From: Minisyncoccota bacterium
Lineage (GTDB): Bacteria; Patescibacteriota; Minisyncoccia; Phycocordibacterales; UBA9973
Direction: 5' to 3'
DNA length: 64,000 nucleotides
NCBI GenBank assembly: GCA_041661005.1
Contig: JBAZVG010000001.1
Coordinates: forward strand, 479,515 to 543,514
Of the stretch, positions 3,916 to 45,156 are shown piece after piece; the first letter of the stretch is position 1, and every line of letters begins with the position of its first letter. The notes under the pieces were generated by a model. That model was given only the letters and a program-made list of their open reading frames with translations, was not told the DNA's origin and did not search any database. Made by a program: the position numbers and the translations under genes.

Positions 3916-3959
3916 AAAATTACTAGTTAAATAAATATTAATAGCCAATAGCTAATTCT

Positions 3960-5709: not shown

Positions 5710-5873
5710 ATAATATCTTTCAATCCTTTTATAATAGCAAAAAATAGTTTTTATCTCTATTCCAGCTTAATACTTGAATATGAACCACTTTTAAACTATA
5801 GTAAGCTCACAAGGACAGTCCTTGCGAAAATTTTGCGAAAATTCAGTTTTTTCACATGATATAATTCCACAAA

Positions 5874-6353: not shown

Positions 6354-6357
6354 TTTT

Positions 6358-7630: not shown

Positions 7631-7723
7631 ACTCAAATTCTTTAAAAATTTTTTCAATCTACGAGGAAATGATTCCGTCTTTTTTATTCTTTTTGTTATA
7701 TAATGACATGTAATTAATTTGAT

Positions 7724-13936: not shown

Positions 13937-13947
13937 TTCAAAAGTTG

Positions 13948-14217
13948 TCATTTCACTTCATCCAAGATGATTTTTTCTGCTGCCTCCGGGTCAAATCTAT
14001 AATTATTCTCCAAATTTGTCTTTACTTCATTCGCTCTATCTATCGCATCTTGTCCTTTTTCGATTATATTCTTTCCATCCTTATCGCCAGTAAATAAATC
14101 CGTGCGTATAATAAAAGTGAAAATGATCACCAATCCGATCATAAGCAATAAAAGTCCTATGTATCCGCCGTTTAAGCTATTTTTGTTTTTTATATATACT
14201 ATGTATTCTTTGAACAT
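13948..14217 (-). CDS. small membrane protein
   Basis: 89 aa with one TM segment GGYIGLLLLMIGLVIIFTFII. Confidence 0.35.
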   Translation of the reverse strand: MFKEYIVYIKNKNSLNGGYIGLLLLMIGLVIIFTFIIRTDLFTGDKDGKNIIEKGQDAIDRANEVKTNLENNYRFDPEAAEKIILDEVK

Positions 14218-14446
14218 CTTGTCCTCTTATCTTAACCTTTGCGCGAACCTTTTTCGAGAATCAAATGAAGTAATGCGCACGCTCCGCGTGCATCATTTCT
14301 CGAAAGCAATTACTACGCTCTGATAATGTGGTAACTCAATGAACTCCGCCACGCGCGATTACGCGCGTCTGCCCTCGCCTCGCCACCGTTTCCATGCATA
14401 TATTATTTCGCGGGGGTTTCTTTTGATTTGGTATGGGTGGCGGGCG
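14218..14446. repeat. left terminal inverted repeat of island (GC-rich, about 229 bp)
   Basis: Plus strand here is the near-exact reverse complement of 25925-26152. Confidence 0.75.
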
Positions 14447-14940
14447 AGGTCAGGTTTCTTCAAAGAAGAAACGGCGAAATTCAAAATACAAATTCAAATC
14501 ATTGTCTCGGGCATTATACCATTTTTCTATTTTGGTGGTCACGCAAAGTTTTGAGGTGCACCCTCGGCATTCGCCTCGGGCATTTCCGCTAGGGCTACGA
14601 GTGCCTAGATGCCTATGAGCGGGCAAGCAAAATAACCGAACGGCTCAAATACCAGTAAATGAGCCGTTCACTCGATTGCCCGCAACTTCTTGGGGAGAGG
14701 AAGTTTCCTCTCCCCGGGTCGGGCTACTCTGGGATTACCCAGAGTTCTGCCCTCGCCATCCCCACTCTACGTTTTTCAATATTGTGTTTAGTGTGTAGCT
14801 TTCGCTTTCGAGAATGCATTTCAATTCGGGTCAGGCACTCGTCCTTTAGCCGTGGCCACCCTAGCGGAAATGCCCAAGGCGGAAAATGCAAATGCACTTG
14901 ACCCACCCACCCATTCGCGTGCAAATTTTCGCCGTGAGGA
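14446..14940 (+). ncRNA. GC-rich hairpin-dense noncoding segment (candidate structured RNA or recombination site region)
   Basis: GC far above the window average; nested hairpins gcgggcaa[gaacggctca..tgagccgttc]ttgcccgc, ggggagagg/cctctcccc and ctctggg/cccagag; long-range complement gggcatttccgctaggg (14579) with ccctagcggaaatgccc (14856). Confidence 0.3.
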
Positions 14941-14963
14941 AAAAGGGACGGCGACTCCCTTAT

Positions 14964-15131
14964 TTATAAATCATCTTTCAATTCAATAGCTTCTTCTTCG
15001 TCTAGTCCTTCCGTATCCATAATTTCTTTTACATGTTCAGCTTCATCTTGATCCAGTCCGTGATTTTCCATAAGTTCCACAACTTCTTCGTCAATTTCTT
15101 CTCCATTTTCATTTTTAATTTCTTCATCCAT
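14964..15131 (-). CDS. tiny highly acidic protein (55 aa, MDEEIKNENGEEIDEEVVELMENHGLDQDEAEHVKEIMDTEGLDEEEAIELKDDL)
   Basis: Manual translation of the minus strand; below the ORF-track size cutoff; last gene of the island operon. Confidence 0.25.
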   Translation of the reverse strand: MDEEIKNENGEEIDEEVVELMENHGLDQDEAEHVKEIMDTEGLDEEEAIELKDDL

Positions 15132-15135
15132 TTTT

Positions 15136-15804
15136 TTATATTTCAGAATAAAATACTGAATGCCCAGTTTTTCCGTTCTGTTTTATTTTTCCTTCTTTCT
15201 CTAATTGTGAAAGGTATCTAGTTGCAGTTGCATCAGACACATGCAAAAACTTTTCTACTTCGTCGTTGGTGACTCGTGGTGAGCTTGTCGAACCATTTTT
15301 ATTTTCAAACAAAGACATGACACGATCTAGTTTCTTTCTTTTTCTGAATTGAATCGCATTTCTAGCTGTGATTAGAAGTTCGCGAGCTAGATTAGATTTA
15401 GGTTGCTCACTCACAGGCTTCGCCTGTTCGTTTTGAGAAGTTTCCGGTTCTTTCAACGGCTCATTTACTGGTATTTGAGCCGTTGGAGGTTCAATAGCTT
15501 GGACGGGTTCAAAAACTGACTCAATTGAGGGTTCATTTGTCCCGTTAGAGGTAGGATTTGCTTGCATATCCGTTGGCTCTAATGGGATTGCTTCTTCTGG
15601 TGTAGGGGTAGAATTTGAGGGTGGTATATTAGTACTTTCATCACTAAAACCCTCCCTAGAAGCTTCCGGGGCTTCAGGAAGCACTTCGACAGGCTCGGAA
15701 TCTATGGGTGGAATAGGTGCATCAGCCATAGGCTCTTGGGGGCTTGGTGGAATAGAGTTTTCTTCGGGAATTGGTTTTTGGGTTGTATTTTGTTCGTCGG
15801 ACAT
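15136..15804 (-). CDS. Pro/Glu-rich disordered protein with C-terminal winged-HTH
   Basis: Low-complexity PEPS-rich N-terminal 150 aa; C-terminal VSDATATRYLSQLEKEGKIKQNGKTGHSVFY is wHTH-like. Confidence 0.4.
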   Translation of the reverse strand: MSDEQNTTQKPIPEENSIPPSPQEPMADAPIPPIDSEPVEVLPEAPEASREGFSDESTNIPPSNSTPTPEEAIPLEPTDMQANPTSNGTNEPSIESVFEPVQAIEPPTAQIPVNEPLKEPETSQNEQAKPVSEQPKSNLARELLITARNAIQFRKRKKLDRVMSLFENKNGSTSSPRVTNDEVEKFLHVSDATATRYLSQLEKEGKIKQNGKTGHSVFYSEI

Positions 15805-15805
15805 A

Positions 15806-16681
15806 TTATTTCCCTAATTCTTCTAAATTAATGAACGGATTGGTATATTCTATACCTTTTGGTATAAATCTAATTGATTCTTCATAACATTTTTTTGCTT
15901 CCTCTGGCTTACCCGTCTCAGCAAATAATACCCCAATATTATTATATATATTTGAGTAATGAAGATTAGACTTTAATACAAGATAAAAAGAACTAAAATA
16001 TGCTGGGAGTATGTAGCGATTCATTTCTTGGTCATCATGTAAAGCAACACCCATCATTGGGTTGTCTTGAACAATTTTTTGTGCAGTTTCTCCCGTAGGA
16101 AATCTAAGTGCTCTTACTCTATCTTTAATAGCATTTTTATGAGCAATCCTCGTAGCTAAATCTACCCATCCTTCCTCTTTCTCGCCAGTATAATTAAAAT
16201 CTCTTCCTTTTAAATTAGTAAATTGTAATGGCTCATTTTTAATCTCCTCATAAACTTTTTGTCCGAGTATTTCTAGTGCTGCGTTATAGTTTTTTAATGA
16301 ATTTACTGTGTCCCCATTTAGCTTATATGTTAATGCCAAACTATTTAGTGTATCCACTATTTGAGTTCGAGAGATATTTTCTTTAGTTTGAATTACTATT
16401 TCTAGATACTTAATTGCTTTTTTATATTCTCCTTTCGTCTGGTAAATAATACCTAACTCAAAATTTAACTGACTGGAATCAGGATATTTTGAAATAGCTT
16501 TTTGGCAAACTTCTTCTGATTTATCTAAACGTCCCAACTTACGATTAACATGGACTAAAAAATACCAATAATCCATATCATCAATATATTCTGACTTAAT
16601 CGATATTAAGAAACTTTCAGCGGTGGAATAATCTTTATTTTTTATATAGTACTCAAGTTGTTGATGGTGTGTATCTGTCAT
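15806..16681 (-). CDS. tetratricopeptide-repeat protein
   Basis: Repeated TPR-like helices (YWYFLVHVNRKLGRLDKSEEVCQKAI, NFELGIIYQTKGEYKKAIKYLE and others). Confidence 0.5.
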   Translation of the reverse strand: MTDTHHQQLEYYIKNKDYSTAESFLISIKSEYIDDMDYWYFLVHVNRKLGRLDKSEEVCQKAISKYPDSSQLNFELGIIYQTKGEYKKAIKYLEIVIQTKENISRTQIVDTLNSLALTYKLNGDTVNSLKNYNAALEILGQKVYEEIKNEPLQFTNLKGRDFNYTGEKEEGWVDLATRIAHKNAIKDRVRALRFPTGETAQKIVQDNPMMGVALHDDQEMNRYILPAYFSSFYLVLKSNLHYSNIYNNIGVLFAETGKPEEAKKCYEESIRFIPKGIEYTNPFINLEELGK

Positions 16682-16694
16682 AAATTATTTTTAT

Positions 16695-17153
16695 TTACAC
16701 AACTTCTCCTAAACTAGAAACAAAAACTCCGACCGGCTCTTTCACTATTTTTACCTCAGTGATTACTAACGGTATGAAATTCTCGTCTGTTTTTGAAGAC
16801 TTTTCAGGGTCGCCTAATTTGCAAGTAAGTGCTACTCCCTCAATTCTTAGTAATATTGGGGAATCAGAAAAATTAACAACAACTGGCTGATTAGTTTGTT
16901 TTTGTATTTGCTCAGTAAGCGCTAATTTATTAATAAGCTTAAACTCTTGAAAAATATATATAAACACTTTTAAAACTTCGTCATTAAAATTAAACGAGGC
17001 AACCATTCCATTTATGTTAGCTGTAATACTCGAAGTATGATCTGGATATAATATTAAATCTAATGGAACAAAACTATCCGTAATTACAATCTTTCCATTT
17101 TTGGGAAGCCCAGTGTCTTTTATAAAGGAACCAAAATCTTTTTTGAATATCAT
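16695..17153 (-). CDS. hypothetical protein
   Basis: 152-aa ORF tightly packed between the TPR and ATPase genes. Confidence 0.35.
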   Translation of the reverse strand: MIFKKDFGSFIKDTGLPKNGKIVITDSFVPLDLILYPDHTSSITANINGMVASFNFNDEVLKVFIYIFQEFKLINKLALTEQIQKQTNQPVVVNFSDSPILLRIEGVALTCKLGDPEKSSKTDENFIPLVITEVKIVKEPVGVFVSSLGEVV

Positions 17154-17189
17154 AATTTTTTTATTTGTAAATTATTTTTCATTAGTTCT

Positions 17190-19541
17190 TTAATAATTTA
17201 AAGAGTATAAATAATCCATCATCTCAGTAGCAAAATTACGAACATCTTCATCGTTATTTGAAGTGAAAATATGAGAATCAGAATTTAGATTATTCCTAAA
17301 CCCATGAAGTTTTGTTTTTACTTCTTCTTTTCCCTCAAAAATTCCATCAATCATTTTTTCTAAACTACTACAATCTACTTTTTTATCTTGTATCTGTTTA
17401 GCAAAGATAGTTGGAAGGTATAAATTTTCTAAAAATGGCCTTAAATCCGTTTTTATAGATTCAGATTGTGATCTATTTATAAACTCATAAATTTTCATAA
17501 AAACTTTTTCATAATCACTCATAGTGTATACATTTCGTTCCGACAAAACTAAAGAACTAGTTGCATCATCTTTTTTGATTTTTAGATACTTTGTTGTTAT
17601 CTGTGAATCTTTTGTAATTTCACAAAATCTTTTTATAAAATTAGGGTAATGAGTTAATATTATAATTTGACTGACTTGACTTATCGTTTCTTTAAAAAGA
17701 TTTATACTATAAGTGGTTCTATTGTCATCAAAACTCGTCATTGGGTCGTCTAATATAATTACCATTTTCTCTTTTTCTGCTTGTTCTTTTAAGTCTATTT
17801 TAACCCAAAAAATAGCTAAGGCTAAAGTGCGTCTGTCTGATTCACTAAACACAGATTTTAATTGATCGTTAGATATTTTTACATTATGAAATTTTACTTT
17901 CAAAGAGTAGACGGGCATGTGTCCCTGATTATTAGTATCTTTTTCAAGGGTAAAATTCTTACTTCCAAGTTTTTTAAATAAATCATTTATTTGAGTAAAG
18001 TAATTTACTAAATACTGAGATTGATCTCCCTCCAAACGACTTTCTAACACAGAAATTTCTGCCTCTGATATAGTAATTTCTTGTTGTATTTTTATGTAAT
18101 TAATACAATCTTGGTCTTGGTCAATTCTTGCCTTTTTATATTCTAATTCTTCAATTTCACTTATTAAAAAATCGACACCCTGCTGAATCGTTACGATATT
18201 TTCGTACTGTTTTTTAAAAGCTTTTATTTTTACCGAAAGTTCATCAATTATTTCTTTTATATTTATAAGGGATTGGTTATATTCAAGATATATTGTTTTA
18301 AAATGTGAAAAGTCAATAATGTCCACTCTCTTATATGGGCACTTACTTTTTAGATCTTGACTTGATTCTATGTTTTTTAATATTTTGCCTTTTTCAACAC
18401 TTAAATCCTCTTCTTGTAGTAAATCTATGTTTGTTTGTAGTTCAATCAATTTAGCTTGAAAAATTTCGTCGCTTATAAATTCTTTGTATTTATTGAATCC
18501 TATTAGAACAGTTTGTAAAATTGTTTTTTGAGCGAAGGTAAAATTTTCAATTTCTCTATTTTTGCTTTCTAATTCTTTGTCAATTCTACTTATAAAATCA
18601 TTGTAAACCTCATCGAAATATGAATCATAAATATTTATTAAATCTTGAGCATTATGAAGAAATTGACCACAAAACGGACAACCATCTTTTGTTCTATCCT
18701 TACAATAATGTAAGCCTGCTTTTATCCAATTTTCAGCGTTATCTTTAGAAGAAAAATTGTCAAATAAATGTTTATTTAGCTTTACTAATATATCTTCCTT
18801 AATACTTGAGTAGTCCTCTTGTAGTAAAGTATTTATCATTTCAAGTAATTCTATAATAGTAAAAGTTGGTAAATAAAATTCGTTTGGCTCCTGTAATTGC
18901 GATATCTTTTGTGGCTCCTTTAAACGTTCTTGTTCCTTCTGTAATGCGATTTTCTTTTGAGGCAAAATATTTTCAATATTATCTTTTTCTAACCCCACAA
19001 TAGAAAATTCCAAGAATTTTATGATTTCAATATCTATCTTATCTTTTACGAAATTTGGTACTTTTGTCTTTAATTCTCTTTTTTTATCTCCTGTTTCTTT
19101 TTTCTTTTTTGCAATTTCTTTTGCAAGTTTTACGCTTTGCTCTCCAAGAATAAACTGGGTAAAGTTTTCCTTGTTTTCTCTTCCAATATTTAAACCAGTA
19201 AATAAATTTTTATGAATAAAATCAGTGTCAAAAACCTCTAAATACTTTGACAGATCATTTTGGGTCCAATTATCATGTTCAAACATGATATCGTTTTCTA
19301 TCTCTTCTTTAACAGAAAAAACCACCTTCTGTTGTCCTGTCTGTGCTGGAATTGTTTTTCTATCTTGAATAATTTTAGGATCATTGTCTTTTAAAGATTG
19401 GAAAATATCTGTCAAAGTAGTTTTTCCATAAGTATTAAAACCATAGATAAAAGTTAGTTTTTCAAAACCCAAAGAAGCTCCATTTGTGAAATTGGAAAAT
19501 GTACCTATATTTTTAATTTCTTTAATGCGAGCTATTTTCAT
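17190..19541 (-). CDS. AAA_13 / RloC-like Rad50-type ABC ATPase with coiled-coil zinc hook and possible C-terminal anticodon-nuclease-like domain
   Basis: N-terminal KLTFIYGFNTYGKTTL Walker A in an SMC-like context; central coiled coil with CPFCGQ; Walker B IILDDP; H-loop ILTHY; C-terminal LRPFLE...KLHGF resembles an R-x3-E...H triad. Confidence 0.5.
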   Translation of the reverse strand: MKIARIKEIKNIGTFSNFTNGASLGFEKLTFIYGFNTYGKTTLTDIFQSLKDNDPKIIQDRKTIPAQTGQQKVVFSVKEEIENDIMFEHDNWTQNDLSKYLEVFDTDFIHKNLFTGLNIGRENKENFTQFILGEQSVKLAKEIAKKKKETGDKKRELKTKVPNFVKDKIDIEIIKFLEFSIVGLEKDNIENILPQKKIALQKEQERLKEPQKISQLQEPNEFYLPTFTIIELLEMINTLLQEDYSSIKEDILVKLNKHLFDNFSSKDNAENWIKAGLHYCKDRTKDGCPFCGQFLHNAQDLINIYDSYFDEVYNDFISRIDKELESKNREIENFTFAQKTILQTVLIGFNKYKEFISDEIFQAKLIELQTNIDLLQEEDLSVEKGKILKNIESSQDLKSKCPYKRVDIIDFSHFKTIYLEYNQSLINIKEIIDELSVKIKAFKKQYENIVTIQQGVDFLISEIEELEYKKARIDQDQDCINYIKIQQEITISEAEISVLESRLEGDQSQYLVNYFTQINDLFKKLGSKNFTLEKDTNNQGHMPVYSLKVKFHNVKISNDQLKSVFSESDRRTLALAIFWVKIDLKEQAEKEKMVIILDDPMTSFDDNRTTYSINLFKETISQVSQIIILTHYPNFIKRFCEITKDSQITTKYLKIKKDDATSSLVLSERNVYTMSDYEKVFMKIYEFINRSQSESIKTDLRPFLENLYLPTIFAKQIQDKKVDCSSLEKMIDGIFEGKEEVKTKLHGFRNNLNSDSHIFTSNNDEDVRNFATEMMDYLYSLNY

Positions 19542-19543
19542 AA

Positions 19544-21052
19544 TTATTCTTCCCCTTCACCCAATTCTAATCTTTTTATCTGCGGCAAGGCCACCAATCC
19601 ACTCAAATCACCATACATACCAACTGTATTAGTAATTACTTTTTTAATTTGTTTTTCTCTTTCTGACCAAATTTTTTCGTAAGCTAACCTTTCTTTCTTT
19701 AATCCGTTATCCATACCTGTAAAAGCTTCAACTATTGCTTCTACTCTTTGTTTAAACTCTATACCTGTTAAATAAGCGTAAAGTATTTCCATTTTATCAT
19801 TTTTACCAACGGACATTGTTTTTTCCCTTGTTACAGATTCTAAATTTACTCGCAAGGCAGTTGCAAGAGCTGTAGCAAGTTTTATGTCACAAATCCACAC
19901 ACCATCACGAAAACCAAAGCCTTTAATGTCTCCTGGTAGCGTGATAGAAACTATAACAGCAATTTCAGCCTTCATAATCCTTTGATCATCTTTTAATTTT
20001 TGTATCCATCCTTCACTCCATGCTTTGGTCTTTTTTGATTCCCACACAATTTGACCACAATATTTACCAGATTGATTCTGAACCTTTTGTATGATATCGG
20101 CTCCACTTACTCCTTTCGGAACTGGAGATATTTCATCAAAAGGAAATTCAGATCTTAAAAGATCCTCCAACTCAAGCTCCAACACTTCTCCTTGTGTTTG
20201 TTGTGAACCCTGTTCAAGCTTACGAGAAAGTTCGTCTTTTGCCTTAGTAGCATCAGTTAAACGTTTCTCTAGTTGTGCAATAATATACTTCTGTTCTTCA
20301 TTTGCTTTTTTACTAGCTTCCTCTATTATTTGTTTTCTTTCTATATCCAACTGTCTTTGTTTTTCTAACTCAAAGTTTTGTTTATCTTCTTCAAGTTTAT
20401 TTTTCTCTTTGCGCAAATCCAGCTCTTTTTTGTTTGCTTCTTTCAGTTTGATATCTTTCTCTTCTAATTGTTCCTGAAGTATTTTCTTGTCTGCTTCCTT
20501 TTCTTTTTCTGCCTCCTCTATTTGTTTTAATAATTTTATAGAATCTCTCTCGCTTTGTTTTACGGCACGAGCAAAAGCTTCTTGCTCTATCCCTTTACGC
20601 TCAGCATCGATTATTTTTGCTTTTTCCACCTCAAAATTTTTCTTTTCATCCTCAAATTTCTGCCTACTTGCACGAGCTTTTAAAGATTCAGTGTTTGCCT
20701 CATCCAACTTTTTATCTTTTTCTTTCATTTGTTCTTCTAACAACTTAACTTCAGCTGCTGTTTTCTTTTCAGCTGCTGTTTGTGCTTCTTTCCATAGTGT
20801 AATTTTTTCCACTGCAAGTTTTTCTGCCACTTTTTTACTGACTTCACTTTGTGTGTTTTTCTGTAATTCTTCCAATTTTATTTTTTGTTCTTCTATTTCT
20901 TTTCTCTCTTTTGCCATTTCTATTTCCTTTAGCTTGTTTTCTTCACTAATTTCCTTCTTTATATTTTCTTCAATTTGATGCGTTAATACATCATCAATTG
21001 ATATTGCTGTTTTACAATTGGGGCAGATAATATTTTTTGTATCGTTTTTCAT
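19544..21052 (-). CDS. DUF2130-like coiled-coil protein with N-terminal zinc ribbon and C-terminal PD-(D/E)xK-like domain
   Basis: CPNCK at the N-terminus; about 250 aa of K/E-rich coiled coil; C-terminal GADIIQ...IVWESKKTK. Confidence 0.45.
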   Translation of the reverse strand: MKNDTKNIICPNCKTAISIDDVLTHQIEENIKKEISEENKLKEIEMAKERKEIEEQKIKLEELQKNTQSEVSKKVAEKLAVEKITLWKEAQTAAEKKTAAEVKLLEEQMKEKDKKLDEANTESLKARASRQKFEDEKKNFEVEKAKIIDAERKGIEQEAFARAVKQSERDSIKLLKQIEEAEKEKEADKKILQEQLEEKDIKLKEANKKELDLRKEKNKLEEDKQNFELEKQRQLDIERKQIIEEASKKANEEQKYIIAQLEKRLTDATKAKDELSRKLEQGSQQTQGEVLELELEDLLRSEFPFDEISPVPKGVSGADIIQKVQNQSGKYCGQIVWESKKTKAWSEGWIQKLKDDQRIMKAEIAVIVSITLPGDIKGFGFRDGVWICDIKLATALATALRVNLESVTREKTMSVGKNDKMEILYAYLTGIEFKQRVEAIVEAFTGMDNGLKKERLAYEKIWSEREKQIKKVITNTVGMYGDLSGLVALPQIKRLELGEGEE

Positions 21053-21079
21053 ATTTTTTAATTTTATTAATAAATTTTC

Positions 21080-24000
21080 TTAAACTGCTTTTGTCCCACG
21101 ACAATAAGGAAACTTTGAACATCCATAAAATTTGCCTCTCCTTCCATTTCTTAAAATCATTTTTGATCCACAGCGCGGACAATCTTTATCAGAAAGTATT
21201 GGCACTGGTCTATCATTTCTCGAAATTCGAGATAGACCTTTACAAGTCTTGCAAAAGCGTCCGTAGCCACGGATTAGAGTTGGGTCTTTAAAATCAACTA
21301 AATCCCTTATCTCGCGACATTTTGGACATTCTTTTTTATCTCCATTGTGCAAGCCCTCAATCGTATTCTGAATACCGTTTAAAACAGCATTGTTTTGTGT
21401 GCGATAATTTTTAAACAAACTCGTGATTCTTTCATTAAGCGTTGTAACAGGGTTAGAACCAACATTGAATTTGTTAATTCGCAAGAATTTATATCCGTAA
21501 CTCTCCAAAACTTTCTGACGATAAACATCATCTTCAGAATAATAGTTTTCATAATTAAACTCATTTGCCTCGTCGAGATCGTTAAAATGTTCTGTAAATC
21601 CATCATACTCAATGATAATCTTGTGTTCTTTTTGGTTTTCATCTTTATACACAAGTAAAAAATCAACTTTATAGTGAGGATGTTTATAAGTCCTATCAAG
21701 TTGTTTTAGATATTTTCCAATTTCAAATTGAGGGAAGAATTCAATATTTTCTTTATTATTTTTCCAAAAATCTGTATCATAAAACCATTTTAAAACCTTA
21801 GGTTCCATTTTTGATTTTTGATCCACTTCAGAAATTTCGTGTTCTTTCTTCGCTTCCTCAAGAATAAAATTATAATGTCTTAAAGCATCTCCAATTGAAC
21901 CTGTAAATTTATCAAGTGGCTTACTAAGCACAAAGTGTACAGTTTCTTTAGCCCGACTAAATCCAACATTGAGGCGTTGAACTTTTATTTTTCCATCTTC
22001 CTCACTATCAACGCTATTAAAATCTTTTATAAAGACACCCCACAATCTATCAGAGTTTTCATTTGCAACCATCGAATAGAAAATAATATCTCGTTCTTCT
22101 CCCTGACAAGTATCAAAAGTCATTATTTTTAACTTCAGATTTTCAAAGTAAAAATCTCGTTCAGGTAATTTACTGATGGCCTCCATAAGCAATTTCTGCT
22201 GATTGGTGTGTGGCGTGATAATACCTACACTTTCGGTCTTGTTGTTTTCATACATTATCTTTAATTGTCCAACTATAAAATCAATCTCGGCTTTATTACT
22301 ATTTCCAACTAGCTCGTCTTTCCCGTCGTGGTCAACGAAACTAAATTTAACAACATCAGCAATTTTTTTACCCCTAATCTTCATTACTTGAAGACTGTCC
22401 TGATAAAAATACTTATTCGAGTAAGAAATAATTTCTTTGTATCCACGAAAATGTTTCAAAAGTTGCGTGTTGTAATTTGTTATAAATTCAAAAAATTCTA
22501 GTATTGAGGTCTTGATGTCAAATTTCCCAAGCTTCACTATTTTAGAATCTTCTTCTGATACTTGATCGCGAAATACTTGCGCCAAGGAATTTAAGTACTC
22601 CCGATTTGTTTCAGACCGAGCTTGTGCCGCCTTAATGTTACTGAATTGTTTTCTATCCCCGAGAATAAGCACCTTTTTCGCTCGAATCAAAGCGGGAAAA
22701 GCTTGTGCAATACTAACTTGTGATGCTTCATCAATAATAACCAAGTCAAAAAGTCCTGCATGCAAAGGAATGTATTCTGCGTAATCTCTGATTCCGGCAA
22801 GTATGCAAGGGAAAGCGTCTTTGAGTTTAAGAAATTGCTCTTTCGGAAACTTCATTTTATTTTTAATAACTTCTCTTAAAGTTTCCGCATCTGCTTTGTT
22901 GTTATTATAAAAATCAATAAGGCGAGTATCTAAAACATGAGTAACTTGCGTAGTTACCAAAGTTTCCAACTCTTTCTTCTGTCCCATATAACTCAATGTC
23001 GGGATTAACCCGAATTTAGCAACTATGGAACCCTTAAGTATTGCGTAGCGTGTTGCTTTATCAAAGTCCAAGCTAGTCATTTTAACAAGCTTGCTGTCTA
23101 ACATTTCTGAAAAATTGTCTTTCGAGATTTTTAACTTTTTTATTGAATGAGGGTATGAATCTAATTCTTGCAAGAGCGATAAAAAGTCCGTCTCGAGAGA
23201 AAGTACCTTTTCTTTATTTTCACTAAAATTACTACCCGTCAATATTAGTTTAGATAAAATTTCAATATGATCAATCCCCAAATGTGAAATTGTTTTTGCT
23301 TGCTCTTTTAAGGCATTATAATAATCACAAATCTCTATAACTCGTTTAAAGTTTTTTATATTTTCATTAGGATTTTGAAAATCTGACAACGGAAATAGTT
23401 CCCTAAATGAGTTATTTAAAGTCTGAACCTTAGAACTGCTGAACAGGTATCCAAAAATAGGTATTCTGGTTTCATCATAAGATCGAGTCCACTTTTTGAG
23501 CTCGTTTAAGTCTTTGTGAGAAAAAACTTTGAAACGAGATAGTATCTGAACATCTTGATTAAATTTCAAAGAGACATCTTCCACAATTTGATAATAAGCG
23601 GTAAGAATACGTAATGTGTCTAAAAACATCTCACTACTTTTTAATGTTTCTAGTTTTACATTCAATATTTCTGATAAGTAATCGTTTTTAAGAATGTCGG
23701 GCAAAGATAATAATAAAGACCTTAGATCATCGAAAAAGACGACAGCGTTTTCATTCTCGGATAACTCATCAAGATCAAAATCATATTGCCTTGAAGAATA
23801 AAATTCCTCTAGCCCACAAAATTCAGTTATTTCCCGAAGATCAATATCAGAATACGCTAATGCTTCTACTTCAATATCTTCTTTCAAAGAATTCGATAAT
23901 TTGGAAATATTTTCCTCAATCGAAGAATAATCTTTTTGTACTGCTCTATGGTGAGTTTTAATTTTTTCTATAGAAGACTTTGCAAGAATTTGACCATAAG

Positions 24001-25642
24001 TATTCCCTGTTTTTCCAAGCCTTAAAATTGGATTTTGAAAATTCTCCTCATCAAAACGAACTCTATTCATAGTTTCAGTTATCTTGTCCTCAACAACATC
24101 AAGTGCTTCTTTTTTATCAGAAAGTACAAGTACTGATTGATGATTAAGAATTGCATCAAATATAATTGCGGTGATCGTATGACTTTTACCCGTACCCGGA
24201 GGGCCTTCAACTGTTATATATTTGCATCCATCTTTTCTTATTGCTGACAATATCTGTATTTGTTCACTGTTAAGAGGAATCGGGCTTGTTGAGACAAGTT
24301 TATCGGGAACCGATGTATCATCCCACTCCCTTTCAACTTCAGGATTTATAGGCTTTGGATTTTTGTGAATAAAATCATCAACTAATATGTTGAATATCTT
24401 GGCAAGTTCTCCTTCTCCATTACTTAGCTGTTGCAAGATTTCCTCATAGTCATTTACAAGGGCTTCATCTGATTTATCAAATAACGAAAGATACACTGAG
24501 TTAGAAGTTCTAACGCTTAGGCTTTTTGCTTGTTGGGGGTCTTTTGAATCAAGGTCAATATTTTTATTTAACCCAAAAAGATTTGTGATTTCATTAAGAA
24601 TTTTTTCAAGTGTATCATTAACACGCTCTGTTTCTTGCGATAAATAAATAATGCGTTCAGTAATACTTTTAAGATTACCCTTTGCACCAGTTTCTTTGTT
24701 GTACTCTTGCACAATAAACTCAAGAGCTTTTTTGTTTATGTATATTTGAGAATCAAATTCAATATGAAATATATCGTTATCCCTCTTTAGAGAAAATGGT
24801 GTATAAAAGATTGGATATTTTACTTTATTAAAACTAATATCGCAGAAATAAAGATAGAATTCTTGTTTATCTAAAATTGCTCTGTTTTTATCAATTTCAA
24901 AAAGTTCGCTGAACAAATCTCCGACTTGAAACGACTCAAAAAAGTTTGTGATAGTGTTTTTTGTATCATTTAAGTCAATAACTGATTTAAGCTCTTTTTG
25001 AATATTAACTTTCTGTTTAGAAATTAAAACTTTCAAAAGTTCAGAAACTTTATTTTCGGTGATATTTAAAAAAACTTCGGCTAGCTCTTCTTCCATTAAA
25101 AATATATCGTTCTCGTCGCCAATACCAAGACTTTCTATTGATTTTTCAATACTACTGACAAATGGAAGGACTAGGAATGTTTTGATATGTAATGAAACTG
25201 CTTCAAGGGTTATGGTCAAAGCCTTCTCGTATTCTTTTGAATACAGGGTCGCTGATTTTTCAAGATCATCAGTTATGGCATTAATTAACTCATTGATTTG
25301 AGAACTTTGAATTTTACCAACTTGCAAAGTTATTAGATCTAAAAGATTTTTTGGAAGATTACTACGATATACTCCTTTACTGATTGTACTTAAAACACTC
25401 TTGTCAAAACCGTGAGTAACTAATTTCCATATATCCTTTGTGAAAGATGGATATTTTGAAAGATTTATGCCGACAAGCAAATTATCGTTAGTTCTATATT
25501 TGACTGATCGTTTTGGATTTTTTCTCTTATGAAAATCTGTCTCAAGAAAATCCATGAAATACTTAGCAACCTCTTTAACAAAGGCGAGATTGCCAGTAAG
25601 GCTAGTGTCTAATCTTTTTTCTTGTGAATTATTTTCATTCAT
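21080..25642 (-). CDS. SF1 (Upf1/Dna2-like, AAA_11/AAA_12) helicase fused to DUF559/Vsr-like endonuclease and topoisomerase-type C4 zinc ribbon; N-terminal DUF4011-like region
   Basis: GPPGTGKSHT, DLVIIDEASQ, LILGDRKQ, TFDTCQGEERDIIFYS; KVDFLLVY..IIIEYDGFTEHF..YGYKFLRIN; CPRCGSKMILRNGRRGKFYGCSKFPYC. Confidence 0.65.
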   Translation of the reverse strand: MNENNSQEKRLDTSLTGNLAFVKEVAKYFMDFLETDFHKRKNPKRSVKYRTNDNLLVGINLSKYPSFTKDIWKLVTHGFDKSVLSTISKGVYRSNLPKNLLDLITLQVGKIQSSQINELINAITDDLEKSATLYSKEYEKALTITLEAVSLHIKTFLVLPFVSSIEKSIESLGIGDENDIFLMEEELAEVFLNITENKVSELLKVLISKQKVNIQKELKSVIDLNDTKNTITNFFESFQVGDLFSELFEIDKNRAILDKQEFYLYFCDISFNKVKYPIFYTPFSLKRDNDIFHIEFDSQIYINKKALEFIVQEYNKETGAKGNLKSITERIIYLSQETERVNDTLEKILNEITNLFGLNKNIDLDSKDPQQAKSLSVRTSNSVYLSLFDKSDEALVNDYEEILQQLSNGEGELAKIFNILVDDFIHKNPKPINPEVEREWDDTSVPDKLVSTSPIPLNSEQIQILSAIRKDGCKYITVEGPPGTGKSHTITAIIFDAILNHQSVLVLSDKKEALDVVEDKITETMNRVRFDEENFQNPILRLGKTGNTYGQILAKSSIEKIKTHHRAVQKDYSSIEENISKLSNSLKEDIEVEALAYSDIDLREITEFCGLEEFYSSRQYDFDLDELSENENAVVFFDDLRSLLLSLPDILKNDYLSEILNVKLETLKSSEMFLDTLRILTAYYQIVEDVSLKFNQDVQILSRFKVFSHKDLNELKKWTRSYDETRIPIFGYLFSSSKVQTLNNSFRELFPLSDFQNPNENIKNFKRVIEICDYYNALKEQAKTISHLGIDHIEILSKLILTGSNFSENKEKVLSLETDFLSLLQELDSYPHSIKKLKISKDNFSEMLDSKLVKMTSLDFDKATRYAILKGSIVAKFGLIPTLSYMGQKKELETLVTTQVTHVLDTRLIDFYNNNKADAETLREVIKNKMKFPKEQFLKLKDAFPCILAGIRDYAEYIPLHAGLFDLVIIDEASQVSIAQAFPALIRAKKVLILGDRKQFSNIKAAQARSETNREYLNSLAQVFRDQVSEEDSKIVKLGKFDIKTSILEFFEFITNYNTQLLKHFRGYKEIISYSNKYFYQDSLQVMKIRGKKIADVVKFSFVDHDGKDELVGNSNKAEIDFIVGQLKIMYENNKTESVGIITPHTNQQKLLMEAISKLPERDFYFENLKLKIMTFDTCQGEERDIIFYSMVANENSDRLWGVFIKDFNSVDSEEDGKIKVQRLNVGFSRAKETVHFVLSKPLDKFTGSIGDALRHYNFILEEAKKEHEISEVDQKSKMEPKVLKWFYDTDFWKNNKENIEFFPQFEIGKYLKQLDRTYKHPHYKVDFLLVYKDENQKEHKIIIEYDGFTEHFNDLDEANEFNYENYYSEDDVYRQKVLESYGYKFLRINKFNVGSNPVTTLNERITSLFKNYRTQNNAVLNGIQNTIEGLHNGDKKECPKCREIRDLVDFKDPTLIRGYGRFCKTCKGLSRISRNDRPVPILSDKDCPRCGSKMILRNGRRGKFYGCSKFPYCRGTKAV

Positions 25643-25646
25643 AAGT

Positions 25647-25853
25647 TTATTTCAAAAGTTCATTAGTAGAAACATTTAATGCTTTTGCTAACTTTGCAAT
25701 TGTCGAAAGCGTTGGGTTTGTTTTGCCACTTTCAATATTACTAATAAAACCACGACTAACACCAAGGGAACGAAAAATATCGCCTTGCGTTAAGCCCTTG
25801 CTGATTCTGATGCGTTTCATGTTTTTGCCAAGCTTTACCGACTCAGTTTTCAT
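25647..25853 (-). CDS. XRE-family HTH transcriptional regulator
   Basis: LTQGDIFRSLGVSRGFISNIESGKTNP HTH_3 motif; start taken at the internal Met (MKTES), because the 5' extension runs into the inverted repeat. Confidence 0.6.
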   Translation of the reverse strand: MKTESVKLGKNMKRIRISKGLTQGDIFRSLGVSRGFISNIESGKTNPTLSTIAKLAKALNVSTNELLK

Positions 25854-25877
25854 TATCCACAGTATAGCTCTTGCTAC

Positions 25878-25886
25878 ATTATACCA
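25878..25886 (-). promoter_or_regulatory. extended -10 element TGgTATAAT upstream of the XRE gene
   Basis: Reverse complement reads tgtggtataat about 25 nt upstream of the ATG. Confidence 0.4.
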
Positions 25887-25924
25887 CAATATTATATTAT
25901 AATGTAATAGATGGAATATACCCA

Positions 25925-26152
25925 TCGCCCGCCACCCATACCAAATCAAAAGAAACCCCCGCGAAATAATATATGCATGGAAACGGTGGCGAGGCGAGGG
26001 CAGACGCGCGTAATCGCGCGTGGCGGAGTTCATTGAGTTACCACATTATCAGAGCGTAGTAATTACTTTCGAGAAATGATGCACGCGGAGCGTGCGCATT
26101 ACTTCATTTGATTCTCGAAAAAGGTTCGCGCAAAGGTTAAGATAAGAGGACA
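25925..26152. repeat. right terminal inverted repeat of island
   Basis: Reverse complement matches 14218-14446. Confidence 0.75.
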
Positions 26153-26164
26153 AATTGAGACATC

Positions 26165-26265
26165 AGTGAAAAAATCGGTCGCGCGCTTGCGCGCAATAAT
26201 GGAAAGGGGGTGGGCGAATTCCGAACCCATCTTCTCCGCAAATGCGAATTCGGTGGGTGGGCAAG
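26165..26265. repeat. inverted repeat copy flanking the recombinase gene (partner 27735-27835)
   Basis: Reverse complement of ttgcccacccaccgaattcgcatttgcggagaag...ccattattgcgcgcaagcgcgcgacc is present at 27735-27835. Confidence 0.65.
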
Positions 26266-26320
26266 AAAACAGAAATGAGCCAGACACGAATTCTTCTTTT
26301 TTTATAATCTAAAAACAAAT

Positions 26321-27871
26321 ATGAACAAACCAAAATATTTTCTATACGCGCGAAAGTCAACGGAAGATGACGACAAACAAGTCATGAGTATTGAAGCTCA
26401 ACTTTTTGAGCTTCGTGAATTCGCGCGTAAAGAAAATCTGCAAATTCTTGAGGAATTTACAGAATCAAAAAGCGCAAAGAAACCTGGTCGTGAAAAATTC
26501 AGCGTGATGATGGGTAAAATTGAAAGTATGGACGGTGTAGGTATTCTCGCTTGGCATCCGGATCGTTTAGCGAGAAATAGTATTGACGGTGGACGCATCA
26601 TTTACGCTGTGGACACTACCAAAATAGTTTCTTTACGCTTTCCAACATTTTGGTTTGAACCCACCCCGCAAGGGCTGTTTATGTTGCAAGTGGCGTTCGG
26701 GCAATCCAAGTATTATTCCGACAACCTCAAGCAAAATGTTGAGCGAGGAATCCGCCAAAAATTAAGACGTGGCGAATGGCTAGCCTTGGCTCCTCGTGGC
26801 TTTGTGAATAATCCAAAAACAAAAAATATTGAACCCGATCCGGTGGTGGCAAGAATAATTGTGCAAGCATATAAAGAATTCGCCACGGGAAAACATAATT
26901 TTCCAACGCTTTCAAAATTTTTGGCGGATTTAGGCATGGTCGGAAAAAATGGAACGCCACTTTACAAATCTGCCGTCAGTAATTTGCTTTCCAATAAAGC
27001 ATACATCGGTTTGGTAAAGCATAAAAATGAATGGCATGCCGGCAGTTTTACGCCAATTATTTCTCCCGATTTATTTGAAGCCGTGCAGAAACGTTTGAAA
27101 GAACGAGCAAGGCCTCGCAAAACAAAAGTTGGACACAATTTTCCTTTTACTGGACTTTTTCGTTGTGGTGAATGTAATTGTATGATTTCAGCACAATGGG
27201 CGAAAGGTCGCGGAGGTTTGTACCGGTATTATCGCTGTACGAAAAAAGCAGGAGAAAATTGTTCACAAGGATATTTGCAAGAAAAATTGCTCGTCTCTCA
27301 AGTAAAGGAACGACTTCAACAAATCGCACTTCCCGACGAATGGACCAACTGGATGCTGAAACAAACTGACACATGGGAAAAAGAAGAAAAGTTTTCGTCG
27401 GGAAGTAATCTCGGACAAATCAAAGACGATGAGCAAGTAATACAGCAAAAGCTCGACGATTTAATTACGCTTTATCTCGATGGCGATATTCCGAAAGAAA
27501 ATTATCTCGCCAAAAAGGACGAGCTTTTGCTGAAAAAAGTCTCGCTCACGAAAAAAATTGATTCTGCCCGACACGAGAGAAATAATTGGGTCGAACCCTT
27601 GCGGGAATGGATTTTAGATATGAAAAAAGGTGCCGAATTGGTTTCGTCTTCCGATTTTTACGAAATTCGTGATTATTTGAAAAAAATCGGAACGAACCCT
27701 CGGATGCACGACAAATCCGTCTCTGTCTCATTTTGCCCACCCACCGAATTCGCATTTGCGGAGAAGACGGGTTCGAAATTCGCCCACCCCCTTTCCATTA
27801 TTGCGCGCAAGCGCGCGACCGATTTTTTCGCTGAAGTTTCGTCTTGTCCGCCTGCTACGATTCGAACGTAG
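26321..27871 (+). CDS. large serine recombinase (site-specific integrase/invertase)
   Basis: N-terminal resolvase catalytic domain YARKSTEDDDKQVMSIEAQ, recombinase domain, zinc ribbon CGECNC..YYRC and coiled coil; 516 aa; the 3' end overlaps tRNA-Ile. Confidence 0.7.
   Translation: MNKPKYFLYARKSTEDDDKQVMSIEAQLFELREFARKENLQILEEFTESKSAKKPGREKFSVMMGKIESMDGVGILAWHPDRLARNSIDGGRIIYAVDTTKIVSLRFPTFWFEPTPQGLFMLQVAFGQSKYYSDNLKQNVERGIRQKLRRGEWLALAPRGFVNNPKTKNIEPDPVVARIIVQAYKEFATGKHNFPTLSKFLADLGMVGKNGTPLYKSAVSNLLSNKAYIGLVKHKNEWHAGSFTPIISPDLFEAVQKRLKERARPRKTKVGHNFPFTGLFRCGECNCMISAQWAKGRGGLYRYYRCTKKAGENCSQGYLQEKLLVSQVKERLQQIALPDEWTNWMLKQTDTWEKEEKFSSGSNLGQIKDDEQVIQQKLDDLITLYLDGDIPKENYLAKKDELLLKKVSLTKKIDSARHERNNWVEPLREWILDMKKGAELVSSSDFYEIRDYLKKIGTNPRMHDKSVSVSFCPPTEFAFAEKTGSKFAHPLSIIARKRATDFFAEVSSCPPATIRT
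27735..27835. repeat. inverted repeat copy (partner of 26165-26265); encodes the C-terminus of the recombinase
   Basis: See the partner repeat at 26165-26265. Confidence 0.65.
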
Positions 27872-27920
27872 GACCCTCTAGGTATAAGCTAGATGCTCTA
27901 ACCAACTGAGCTACAGGCGG
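27847..27920 (-). tRNA. tRNA-Ile(UAU)
   Basis: Reverse complement CCGCCTG-TA-GCTC-AGTTGGTTA-GAGC-A-TCTAG-CTTATAC-CTAGA-GGGTC-CTACG-TTCGAAT-CGTAG-CAGGCGG-A; Ile-type D-arm; anticodon TAT. Confidence 0.65.
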
Positions 27921-27954: not shown

Positions 27955-28635
27955 TTAAAATGCAATTTTGTGCTCATGTAATAAAACATCTTGTATGTAC
28001 TGTATACCCATCAGAACTTGAGCAGAAACAAGACCATCTTCGACGATAACTGAACACGTCCCTTGTCCAAAACCGTTAGTATAGGTAATAGAAGATAAAG
28101 TGGTTTTCTTAATATAAGGCTTTCTAAATTGCGAAATTGGAATATTGAGTGTTTTGGACCAAAAATTTATTTGCTTTTTAATATTCATATCTGAATACAG
28201 ATGTAAGTGAACTTTGAGTTTTGATCTAGGAACTCCAAAGAATTTCAGCCAACGAATAAATAAAATTAGCATCTTGGGATTTGTATTGGTGAGTGCAGTT
28301 GAAAAAGTTTTTGTTTTTGAACCCTCAGCCCAATATAAAAATAGTCCTGCAATTAAAAACTCTCTTTCAGAAATTTTACCAATTCTTTTTGCAATATTTT
28401 GATATGCAGTTTTATTTTTTGCCTCACGTTTTGCCCGCATAGTATTTCTATACTTTTCAATGCGAATAGGACTAAAATCTCTTAGTTCTCTGATTCTTTT
28501 CTCGGAAAGAGGCATATTATAAAGCCAGCCACTTAGGGTGCTCTTGCTTATACCAAGCTTTTCTTTGATTTGACTATAGCTCATTCCCTTTTGCCGCATA
28601 GCTAGTGCCTTTTGCTTATCTTCTTTTCTTGCCAT
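27955..28635 (-). CDS. HTH-domain protein with LAGLIDADG-like C-terminal region
   Basis: MSYSQIKEKLGISKSTLSGWL resolvase-type HTH; REFLIAGLFLYWAEGSK resembles a degenerate LAGLIDADG motif. Confidence 0.3.
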   Translation of the reverse strand: MARKEDKQKALAMRQKGMSYSQIKEKLGISKSTLSGWLYNMPLSEKRIRELRDFSPIRIEKYRNTMRAKREAKNKTAYQNIAKRIGKISEREFLIAGLFLYWAEGSKTKTFSTALTNTNPKMLILFIRWLKFFGVPRSKLKVHLHLYSDMNIKKQINFWSKTLNIPISQFRKPYIKKTTLSSITYTNGFGQGTCSVIVEDGLVSAQVLMGIQYIQDVLLHEHKIAF

Positions 28636-28854
28636 TCTTTATTTATATATGTGAACCTACGAATAATGATTACTGGTATAGTATACCATAGTTCATTTAT
28701 AGTAGTAAATGCTAGGCTTCCCTTCGGACAAACAAAGACACAATCGCTTTTTTGTCTCGTGAAAATATTGGAGCTAGAATTATGTTCGATTAGTCTTTGT
28801 TGAGCAATTTTCGCGGTATAACCAAAGCTATAACAAAATAAGGTCAAAAGGCAA

Positions 28855-29076
28855 TTAAGCCAATTTCTTGAGTTCTTCTTCATGTTTCTTCATCACTTCC
28901 ATACTCGCATCCATCTCGCTCATTCCCCCTTTTACTTTCTCTTGCACTTCTTTTGCAATAGTTTGAAAAAGCTCGGGATTTTTCTCGATCATTTTCACAA
29001 ACATATCTATCTGCGCCTCAGGCACGCCCTTCCCCCGCAACATTTTTTTAAGCAAAAAATTTTGAAACATATCCAA
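28855..29076 (-). CDS. small hypothetical protein
   Basis: 73 aa ORF; its 3' end is partially duplicated at 29321-29360. Confidence 0.3.
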   Translation of the reverse strand: MDMFQNFLLKKMLRGKGVPEAQIDMFVKMIEKNPELFQTIAKEVQEKVKGGMSEMDASMEVMKKHEEELKKLA

Positions 29077-29088
29077 AAATATAACAGT

Positions 29089-29313
29089 TTAATCTTCGAT
29101 AATCAATAACTTGCTGGGGTGGTGGTGTCCGTTCACGATACGGACTTTGCTTTTGGAAACTTTAAAATGACTTGCCACCATCTCTAGAACGCGAGTATTT
29201 GCCATATTCCGCTCAGCTTTTTCTTTTACTGAAATTTCAAAATGATCTGAAGATTTTTGCTTGAAAGACTCCCTTTTCACTCCTGCTGTAACTTTTATAT
29301 GAATATAGAACAT
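29089..29313 (-). CDS. DUF167 (YggU-like) protein
   Basis: IKVTAGVKRESFKQ...HFEISVKEKAERNMANTRVLEMVASHFKVSKSKVRIVNGHHHPSK matches the UPF0235 pattern. Confidence 0.5.
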   Translation of the reverse strand: MFYIHIKVTAGVKRESFKQKSSDHFEISVKEKAERNMANTRVLEMVASHFKVSKSKVRIVNGHHHPSKLLIIED

Positions 29314-29439
29314 TTAATTACACCAACTTCTTAAACTCCCTTTCATGTTTCTTCATCATTTGTATGCTGGCAAGAGTATATCATATTTTTTCTCCATTTC
29401 CACAAAACAAAATAGAGGGCCTCCGCGTTGGAAGACCCC

Positions 29440-45041: not shown

Positions 45042-45053
45042 TCTAAAAAAATA

Positions 45054-45140: not shown

Positions 45141-45156
45141 TATGTTTTATTTTTTT

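Follow-up and report, generated by a model that had tools for sequence, protein, structure and literature searches.

A tRNA-linked island with a probably flippable stack of defence-type genes in a Candidatus Paceibacterota genome

RloC is an anticodon nuclease defined by the motif Arg-X3-Glu-X36-52-His, in which a Ser often precedes the His, and by a Rad50-like zinc-hook insert; it excises the wobble nucleotide of tRNA and is active alone (PMC2610378). Hhe and PDC-S37 are large (~1500 aa), stand-alone proteins of defence islands in which a superfamily 1 (SF1) helicase of the AAA_11/AAA_12 type is followed by a DUF559-type nuclease. DUF2130 has been assigned to the PD-(D/E)xK superfamily (PMC3424549), and in the literature searched it was mentioned only as an uncharacterised family of that superfamily. 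Among mobile carriers, the tRNA-targeting islands of large serine recombinases have an end-placed recombinase gene, abut the 3' end of a tRNA, are flanked by direct repeats of 6-8 nt and carry cargo of low GC content. The Mu G/Gin, P1 C/Cin and Salmonella Hin systems consist of a segment between inverted repeats with a serine recombinase gene adjoining, and the segment is found in both orientations. Features that recall each of these were found in one 13.6-kb island (14219-27849) of a 64,000-nt stretch of a Candidatus Paceibacterota genome; this full stretch is called the window below, and coordinates refer to it.

The island is read here, with a probability of about 0.62, as a tRNA-linked integrative element whose cargo, a stack of separately mobile, defence-type genes under the control of an XRE regulator, can be flipped between long repeats. 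It would be built from two modules with a common 6-nt core, a recombinase gene in 117-nt repeats and an 11.5-kb cargo segment in 229-nt repeats. A sequence-only reading of the window had proposed that a helicase-nuclease, a DUF2130-like coiled-coil nuclease and an ATPase of the array formed a new, unnamed three-part system. This was not supported, since the ATPase belongs to PDC-S06/RloC, the trio is not conserved, and DNA identity to relatives ends at the borders of single genes. What had been proposed as a system comes apart into a known effector, two families that are uncharacterised and a carrier of unusual build. The view that the three large proteins are of defence type was upheld: their families are of that kind and not housekeeping ones.

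Gene array and its three large proteins

25851-25924, minus strand: promoter/operator region, read from the sequence
25647-25850, minus strand: XRE-family helix-turn-helix (HTH) regulator, 67 aa from an internal ATG (HTH_3, E 1e-17)
21080-25642, minus strand: helicase-nuclease, 1520 aa, with an N-terminal domain (1-450), an Upf1-like SF1 helicase, a predicted nuclease and two C4 ribbons (Pfam, PADLOC, NCBIfam, alignments)
19544-21052, minus strand: DUF2130 protein, 502 aa, with an N-terminal CxxC hairpin, a coiled coil and a C-terminal PD-(D/E)xK domain (PF09903)
17190-19541, minus strand: RloC-type ATPase, 783 aa, with an ABC head, a CxxC zinc-hook insert and a C-terminal anticodon nuclease domain (AAA_13, PDC-S06)
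14940-14959, minus strand: hairpin and T-run (GGGAGTCGCCGTCCC TTTTT) just 3' of the last gene, probable operon terminator, read from the sequence

Eight co-directional open reading frames (ORFs) on the minus strand lay within 14964-25850, each where the sequence-only reading had put it. Their spacing was tight, as had been described, although the gaps counted from the XRE end were 4, 27, 2, 36, 13, 1 and 4 nt and so covered 1-36 nt rather than 2-27 nt. The array had been drawn from 14964 to 25925; its genes stand, but position 25925 proved to be the first base of a 229-nt repeat arm that had been missed. The predicted promoter of the XRE gene was found as a TG-extended -10 element (TGGTATAAT, 25878-25886, minus strand) upstream of the gene, and a 9-nt inverted repeat around it (TACATTATA at 25898-25906 and TATAATGTA at 25875-25883) forms a putative operator. 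The mechanical ORF of the regulator extends to 26033, and the 67-aa form begins at an internal ATG; a small HTH gene directly upstream of the helicase was frequent among relatives. The terminator at the other end of the array was unflagged by a pattern scan. Scanning of the coding strand found no terminator-like sites between the genes, and promoter-like sites on that strand of the array were not more frequent than in shuffled sequence. With one promoter, one terminator and no terminators between the genes, the array looks like one transcription unit, in keeping with the claim of a co-directional, tightly spaced set of eight. The GC content of the cargo genes was 0.316, compared with 0.38-0.39 in the flanks. 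Exact look-ups of the recombinase, the XRE regulator, the helicase and two small ORFs of 222 and 55 aa returned no record.

Judged by its motifs, the 783-aa protein is an RloC-type anticodon nuclease and hence belongs to an already characterised family. It matched AAA_13 in Pfam (E 5e-37) and, end to end, the PADLOC PDC-S06 model PDLC04895 (E 2.8e-193, 642 bits, residues 3-780 on 2-778 of 784). An alignment of 16 homologues with 40-78% identity showed that Walker A (G39-K40-T41-T42) was invariant together with G34 and N36, as were the signature S566-S568-D569-R571, the Walker B/D-loop pair D598-D599 and the switch histidine H631. The cysteines C288 and C291 (CPFCGQ) were also invariant and lie between Walker A and the signature, in a coiled coil that is itself predicted; the earlier description of an AAA_13-type ATPase with a CxxC hook was thus accurate. 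Near the C-terminus, R701-P-F-L-E705 is followed after 51 residues by S756-H757, and R701, E705 and H757 did not vary among the homologues. These positions are comparable to those of the triad R692/E696/H737 of the G. kaustophilus RloC. The protein therefore is a member of the known RloC family by both the published motif and the full-length PDC-S06 match, having the ABC motifs, the CxxC insert and the Arg-X3-Glu-X51-(Ser)His arrangement; no structural difference from RloC was noticed in the gene, which was read as sequence only. The setting does differ: the copy in the window lies directly behind DUF2130 on a repeat-bounded island and not in a Type I restriction-modification (R-M) locus. Homologues elsewhere were located behind a HinfI-type R-M system or ahead of SIR2_2 and Abi_C genes. 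A PDB sequence search with the protein gave no match. By homology to characterised RloC, it would sense DNA damage in the manner of Rad50, excise the wobble base of tRNA and shut translation down.

The helicase-nuclease appears, from its sequence and architecture, to be a new and widespread family that resembles Hhe and PDC-S37 without being a member of either. Its Upf1-like SF1 core contains a large insert and matched AAA_11 (E 4e-17) and AAA_12 (E 1e-20), both above the Pfam cut-offs. A Vsr/DUF559 nuclease had been predicted behind this helicase. The helicase was borne out; the nuclease domain (~1316-1403, of the DUF559/MTES_1575 type) remained below threshold in Pfam (MTES_1575, 21.7 bits vs a cut-off of 38.2) and was supported by profile comparison. 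In hhalign, the second helicase domain and the MTES_1575/DUF559 nuclease, and nothing outside them, aligned with the PDC-S37 protein of a metagenome locus, L082 (99.4% probability, 409 columns, 29% identity), and the nuclease residues D1327, E1345, D1347 and H1352 were invariant in the family. The topoisomerase-I-type C4 zinc ribbon that had been noted was found as a Zn_ribbon_Top1 match (1486-1518, E 1e-11) over the ribbon at 1488-1514, and a second, conserved C4 ribbon lies at 1439-1467. Unlike Hhe and PDC-S37, which have a DUF4011 N-terminus and DUF3320, the helicase of the window lacks both and has its own 450-aa domain and the two ribbons. A DUF4011 search had been suggested as a check; it gave no PF13195 match in the helicase at E <= 0.01, and the L082 protein of PDC-S37 does have this domain. 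Residues 1-450 form a family of their own, with 470 clusters at 50% identity, and were without exception N-terminal in proteins of ~1300-1700 aa; an AlphaFold2 model of the domain had a mean confidence score (pLDDT) of 59, and a fold search of the PDB with it gave no hit below E 0.1. PDB sequence matches of the whole protein were limited to the cores of Upf1, Nam7, Smubp2 and Sen1 and to TopA zinc ribbons. More than 1700 homologues of ~1520 aa were found across bacterial and archaeal phyla, and with 55-60% identity between distant phyla the family is unusually conserved. In function, the Top1-type ribbons would bring the SF1 translocase to DNA and the DUF559-type nuclease would cut invading DNA.

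Current defence finders see this family through its helicase core only. The PADLOC models MkoC, PDC-S37, MkoA and Hhe and the NCBIfam models ProA and Hhe all matched the core alone and far below the family cut-offs; Hhe (NCBIfam NF042953; PADLOC PDLC02194) scored 110 bits against a cut-off of 2000, over residues 925-1238. The PADLOC assignment that had been proposed as a check thus named the ATPase over its full length as PDC-S06, met the helicase only at its core and left the DUF2130 protein without a match. Three further identities were considered and dropped. Mokosh type II (MkoC), in which a helicase is joined to a PLD-type nuclease, matched 962-1235 of the core only, and no PLD domain was detected in Pfam. 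Lamassu combines an LmuB SMC protein and an LmuA effector, Gabija a GajA OLD-TOPRIM protein and a GajB UvrD protein, and PARIS AriA and AriB; for these three there was only a weak LmuB match of 86 residues (E 3e-4), and no GajA, GajB or Ari model matched. A replicative or housekeeping role was set aside with RecG, the housekeeping helicase, located outside the island.

The 502-aa protein matched DUF2130 (PF09903) with an E value of 1e-64 (218 bits vs a cut-off of 26.7), which confirmed the family named in the sequence-only reading; the zinc ribbon also named there is a single CxxC (C10/C13) and not a set of four cysteines. This CxxC was conserved, and D319, E338 and K340 were invariant in 14 sequences. 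An AlphaFold2 model with low confidence (pLDDT 63, C-terminal domain poor) showed two helices of ~125 aa that would form the coiled coil. RmuC has a long N-terminal coiled coil followed by a C-terminal PD-(D/E)xK domain. Compared by description, this is the same overall plan as that of DUF2130, a likeness by analogy only. Searches of PADLOC, NCBIfam and PDB sequences with the protein gave no match. From its sequence and its restriction-linked neighbourhoods, DUF2130 is a predicted nuclease not yet listed as defence, and it would act as a coiled-coil PD-(D/E)xK nuclease within a layered defence. If either uncharacterised family is shown to protect, widely distributed genes would join the defence catalogue, and a candidate partner would be gained for RloC, a protein for which the original work did not settle the means of attachment to DNA.

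Gene neighbourhoods of the cargo

Neighbourhoods of the helicase family were analysed in 80 loci from genomes of many phyla, bacterial as well as archaeal, with Pfam scans of every immediate co-directional neighbour (47 loci downstream, 37 upstream). Those of DUF2130 came from 80 metagenome loci, 70 of which had a downstream gene. The sole recurrent neighbour of the helicase was a large serine recombinase, within 10 kb in 23 loci. Conservation of the gene trio, put forward earlier as a check of the three-part system, was not observed: the downstream gene encoded DUF2130 in two of the 47 loci, AAA_13 in one, DUF2779 in three and Abi_C in one, and SMC_N proteins, resolvases and others were also found there. 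Upstream, HTH_17 (6 of 37) and HTH_3 (4) were accompanied by SIR2_2, AbiEii and Fic genes. The helicase-nuclease family usually stands alone behind a small HTH gene.

For DUF2130, the analysis revealed a link to restriction, with HsdM, HsdS and HsdR in 17-21 of 79 loci. The gene that follows it encoded an ABC ATPase in 31% of the loci (22/70), namely an OLD-type AAA_15 and TOPRIM ATPase in 17 and AAA_13 in five, and a two-gene module of DUF2130 and an ABC ATPase is therefore plausible. The position of DUF2130 directly upstream of the ATPase gene in these 22 loci recalls that of sbcD before sbcC, by analogy only.

DNA comparison with sister loci showed a mosaic. In L082, 94% identity to the window was confined to the DUF2130 gene, and the gene upstream of it encoded a full-length PDC-S37 helicase. 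In L005, 90% identity covered the XRE and helicase genes only, and the DUF2130 gene of that locus was divergent. In L002, the identity was 82% and covered the helicase gene plus the initial 600 nt of DUF2130. Identity that ends at gene borders, together with the scattered neighbours, fits separately mobile genes that were repeatedly shuffled together. The helicase, DUF2130 and RloC-type genes were rare on plasmids and in phage or viral records, which fits a host-side defence; a phage or plasmid origin of the genes was dropped on the same grounds.

Several findings weigh against this reading of the cargo, and most of them favour a single multi-component system in which the helicase-nuclease, DUF2130 and the RloC-like ATPase act in a complex and helicases of various families fill the first slot. 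The three large genes are spaced by 27 and 2 nt and share one promoter and one terminator, which would also fit a multi-subunit system. On another contig (L163/L171), an XRE gene, a 1626-aa helicase-nuclease, DUF2130 (61% identity) and AAA_13 (68%) follow in the same order with gaps of 2 and 8 nt between the large genes, and the contig shares a GC-rich non-coding element with the window and has a 134-nt bracketing repeat. Its helicase-nuclease belongs to another family that resembles PDC-S37 only in part. In L082, the full-length PDC-S37 helicase precedes a DUF2130 gene 98% identical to that of the window. DUF2130 adjoined SF1 helicase-nucleases in L002, L005, L025, L082, L090, L124, L138, L141 and L142, that is, in about ten loci with helicases of several kinds (the window's family, PDC-S37 and that of L171). 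Judged without a null model, this adjacency might be commoner than a random mix, and together with the recurrence in L171 it makes some functional coupling possible. Moreover, a defence role is one that we infer for both the helicase family and DUF2130. A single system is nevertheless unlikely. The helicase was followed by DUF2130 or AAA_13 in very few of the loci counted above, DUF2130 was mostly located inside R-M loci without such a helicase, RloC homologues were found without either partner, RloC is active alone (PMC2610378), and DNA identity breaks at the borders of single genes. In the preferred reading, the stacked genes would act as co-regulated, layered defences and are probably not obligate subunits of one machine.

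Other combinations were observed in these loci. In L019 (14833-18421), genes for a 946-aa SMC_N-like ATPase and for a PDDEXK_1 nuclease come after that of the helicase, an ATPase-nuclease pairing like that of DUF2130 and RloC. In L024 (16010-18505), a repeat-bracketed helicase is accompanied by a KAP NTPase. A gene of ~491 aa (cluster 13; L103, 6118-7593) recurred beside DUF2130 in four loci, and the DUF2779 protein found after the helicase in 3 of 47 loci is possibly a separate family from it; either could be another uncharacterised resident of defence islands.

The repeat-bounded carrier and its inversion

14219-14447, no strand: distal arm of the first inverted repeat (IR1), 229 nt, complementary to 25925-26153 at 228 of 229 positions
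25925-26153, no strand: proximal arm of IR1, with an inward-facing terminator-like hairpin
26148-26264, no strand: inner arm of the second inverted repeat (IR2), 117 nt, with an inward-facing terminator-like hairpin, 109 of 117 positions (93%) complementary
27733-27849, no strand: outer arm of IR2, inside the 3' end of the recombinase ORF and ending at the tRNA 3' end
26321-27871, plus strand: large serine recombinase, 516 aa (NCBIfam CcrB/XisF-type matches below cut-off)
27846-27920, minus strand: tRNA-Ile (anticodon TAT), with its 3' end overlapping the core

The array had been placed on a mobile island with a serine recombinase gene and a tRNA adjoining, and both were present. The arms of IR1, whose single mismatch is at 14307/26065, enclose the 11.5-kb cargo segment. 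IR1 and IR2 overlap by the 6-nt core. This core (TTGTCC) was located at 14219-14224, 26149-26154 and 27844-27849, and the direct repeat TCTTGTCC was present at both island ends (14217-14224 and 27842-27849). The direct core copies would mark the ends 14219 and 27849 as attL and attR do, and the 3' end of the tRNA-Ile is the probable integration site. The last codons of the recombinase lie past IR2, with the stop (27869-27871) ~25 nt inside the tRNA-Ile gene, so its C-terminal tail would change on excision. These features are those of the tRNA-targeting islands described above; the difference is an internal inverted copy of the end sequences, which gives two long repeat pairs. Literature searches returned neither such an internal inverted copy nor a tRNA-targeting serine-recombinase element combined with a large invertible cargo segment.

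The double-repeat layout was found in four independently assembled elements, that of the window and those of L005 (repeats of 213 and 115 nt), L006 (312 and 134 nt) and L019 (203 and 84 nt). In the latter three, the repeat pairs overlap by a core of 6-7 nt. Each element has three copies of the core, one at the 3' end of the tRNA, one in inverted orientation at the junction and one, direct, at the far island end. The tRNA was Ser in L006 and Glu in L019 according to ARAGORN; in L005, the 3' part of a tRNA at the contig end, read by eye, looks like Cys. Arms were near-identical within an element and differed between elements, with motifs in common. Integration through one copy of the repeat region would explain both repeat pairs together.

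Long repeats also bracketed the helicase in L012, L017, L024, L040, L142 and L171. The helicase-nuclease might then be the island's own enzyme of maintenance, replication or transfer that nicks and unwinds at the long repeats, with the rest of the array as passenger cargo. Its Vsr-type endonuclease-like domain, SF1 helicase and single-strand-binding zinc ribbons would suit such a role, as would its high conservation between phyla, and L006 is a minimal element in which the repeats enclose the XRE/HTH gene and the helicase alone. Repeats of this kind hug the helicase in about ten loci, and short direct ones do so in five more. We consider this role improbable: ~55 of 66 loci of the family have no long repeats, family members sit among SIR2, AbiE, Fic, KAP and R-M genes, the same slot is filled in L171 by a helicase of another family, and the helicase-nuclease module has a homologue in Hhe/PDC-S37, entered as anti-phage by both NCBI and PADLOC.

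Two side observations concern the repeats of these loci. The arms of L012, L017, L040, L142, L171 and L006 contain AATTCC, a C-run, a short spacer, a second C-run and TTCC; the motif is common to elements with different helicase families and is followed in several by a hairpin and T-run. In L022, L023, L034, L053 and L073, the short direct repeats (21-72 nt) that flank the helicase are close to the gene in four.

The preferred reading, a stack of defence-type genes on a flippable segment, draws on a further contig. L162 (926 nt, JGI sample 3300014208) consists of window positions 25674-25924, an arm, and then 14218-13773, and thus joins the XRE end of the cargo to the p89/RecG flank; both unique parts are 100% identical to the window. 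This short-read contig across the repeat, with one junction, suggests the flipped state of the window's own element. In L019, the segment is oriented oppositely relative to the recombinase module. On the opposite side, L162 is a single short-read contig that crosses a 229-nt repeat, and a mis-join is possible. At the single IR1 mismatch it has the allele of the p89-side arm, which points to a crossover within the arm, of the kind that homologous recombination gives, and away from one at the outer core; this speaks against the simplest flip by the recombinase. Cargo inversion most likely proceeds by recombination between the long arms, and the recombinase may have some role in it. The reading that repeats and flipped contig are assembly artefacts around ordinary repair or housekeeping genes, for which one could cite that the loci are almost all metagenome-derived, mostly metagenome-assembled genomes or short-read contigs, and that L162 is short and spans a repeat longer than usual k-mers, is highly improbable given that the two-repeat layout with core and tRNA recurs in four independent assemblies with arms that match within and differ between elements, that the genes are patchily distributed, low in GC and recombinase-flanked, and that the housekeeping helicase RecG lies outside the island.

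Compared with Gin, Cin and Hin, whose sites are ~26-34 bp, the carrier has near-perfect arms of 115-312 nt, its recombinase is of the large (integrase) type, and it lies integrated at a tRNA. A simple on/off switch is not apparent, since the whole 11.5-kb operon would flip with its own promoter. Excision would yield a circle in which the central repeat region is restored a second time in inverted orientation, and with a recombinase segment and a cargo segment this circle would then resemble the yeast 2-micron plasmid. In this mechanism we infer the defence activity, the regulation by XRE, the way of inversion and the effect of a flip. As it stands, the carrier offers a concrete example of the packaging of defence cassettes and of their transfer between lineages that are far apart, Patescibacteria with their reduced genomes among them, and it may spread cassettes led by helicase-nucleases over bacterial and archaeal phyla.

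Two leads are of most value, the flippable carrier and the DUF2130-ABC ATPase pairing. By analogy, DUF2130 may be to RloC- and OLD-type ATPases what Mre11/SbcD is to Rad50/SbcC, sensing and cutting DNA ends or structures, and the resulting module may be recruited by helicase-nucleases or by Type I R-M systems. That DUF2130 is the nuclease partner of Rad50-like ABC ATPases and, at the same time, that the carrier represents a new class of flipping, 2-micron-like mobile elements is a tentative joint proposal with the odds clearly against it.

Small genes, the GC-rich element and other repeats

16695-17153, minus strand: 152-aa ORF, element-specific
15806-16681, minus strand: 291-aa tetratricopeptide-repeat (TPR) protein (TPR_1/2/8, E 1e-18 to 1e-21)
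15136-15804, minus strand: 222-aa ORF, of low complexity in its N-terminal half and with a winged-helix region at the C-terminus (HTH_24 weak, E 7e-4)
14964-15131, minus strand: 55-aa acidic ORF, no family
14448-14930, minus strand: GC-rich non-coding element, GC 0.495 (nhmmer)

Four small accessory ORFs complete the cargo. The 152-aa ORF had no family match in Pfam, PADLOC or NCBIfam, the TPR protein was found in the window and in an identical Logan contig (L001) only, and the sister elements gave no homologue of the 55-aa ORF. The one part of these small proteins that recurred in a sister element was the C-terminal winged-helix region of the 222-aa protein: residues 89-222 were 54% identical (tblastn) to L005 10749-11087, the last gene before the GC-rich element.

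A search with nhmmer also located this GC-rich element (~450 nt) in L163/L171 (E 2e-45) and in L005 (E 2e-22), and in every case it occupies the far end of the cargo segment. It contains an internal 23-nt inverted repeat (14572-14594/14859-14881), and a consensus fold from only three sequences had 76 pairs, 15 of them with compensatory changes. Rfam had no family for the element or the arms (window at gathering score, 13900-15100 at E <= 1), and an exact search of viral contigs for a 17-nt stem motif of the element gave two unrelated coding matches only. An outward-facing promoter-like site with a TG-extended -10 is located at 14542-14513; it is only a lead, but it would read through the arm into p89 in the present orientation, or into the recombinase gene after a flip. 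A ~70-nt sequence with a perfect 30-nt hairpin (AACGGCTCA...TGAGCCGTT) is present in inverted copies at 14620-14690, as an insertion in the GC-rich element that is absent from L005 and L171, and at 15436-15504, where it is in frame within the 222-aa ORF; its appearance is that of a miniature mobile hairpin.

Further repeats and possibly acquired DNA were observed elsewhere in the window. Beyond the tRNA (27955-28635 and 28853-29372), a 226-aa ORF that weakly matches an IS3 transposase (E 9e-5) and a 57-nt repeat pair (75%) nearby point to more mobile DNA beside the island. Positions 1-8000 form a second stretch of low GC (0.30-0.33), comparable to the island, which may be acquired DNA. A 63-nt tandem duplication (39011-39136, 83% identical) lies upstream of a minus-strand gene that starts at 38970. 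Three copies of a ~98-nt repeat (45050-45148, 45784-45882 and 53362-53459) are 92-98% identical; two direct copies flank a gene at 45157-45756 and the third is inverted, 7.5-8.2 kb away, so that they may bound another segment or represent a small mobile element.

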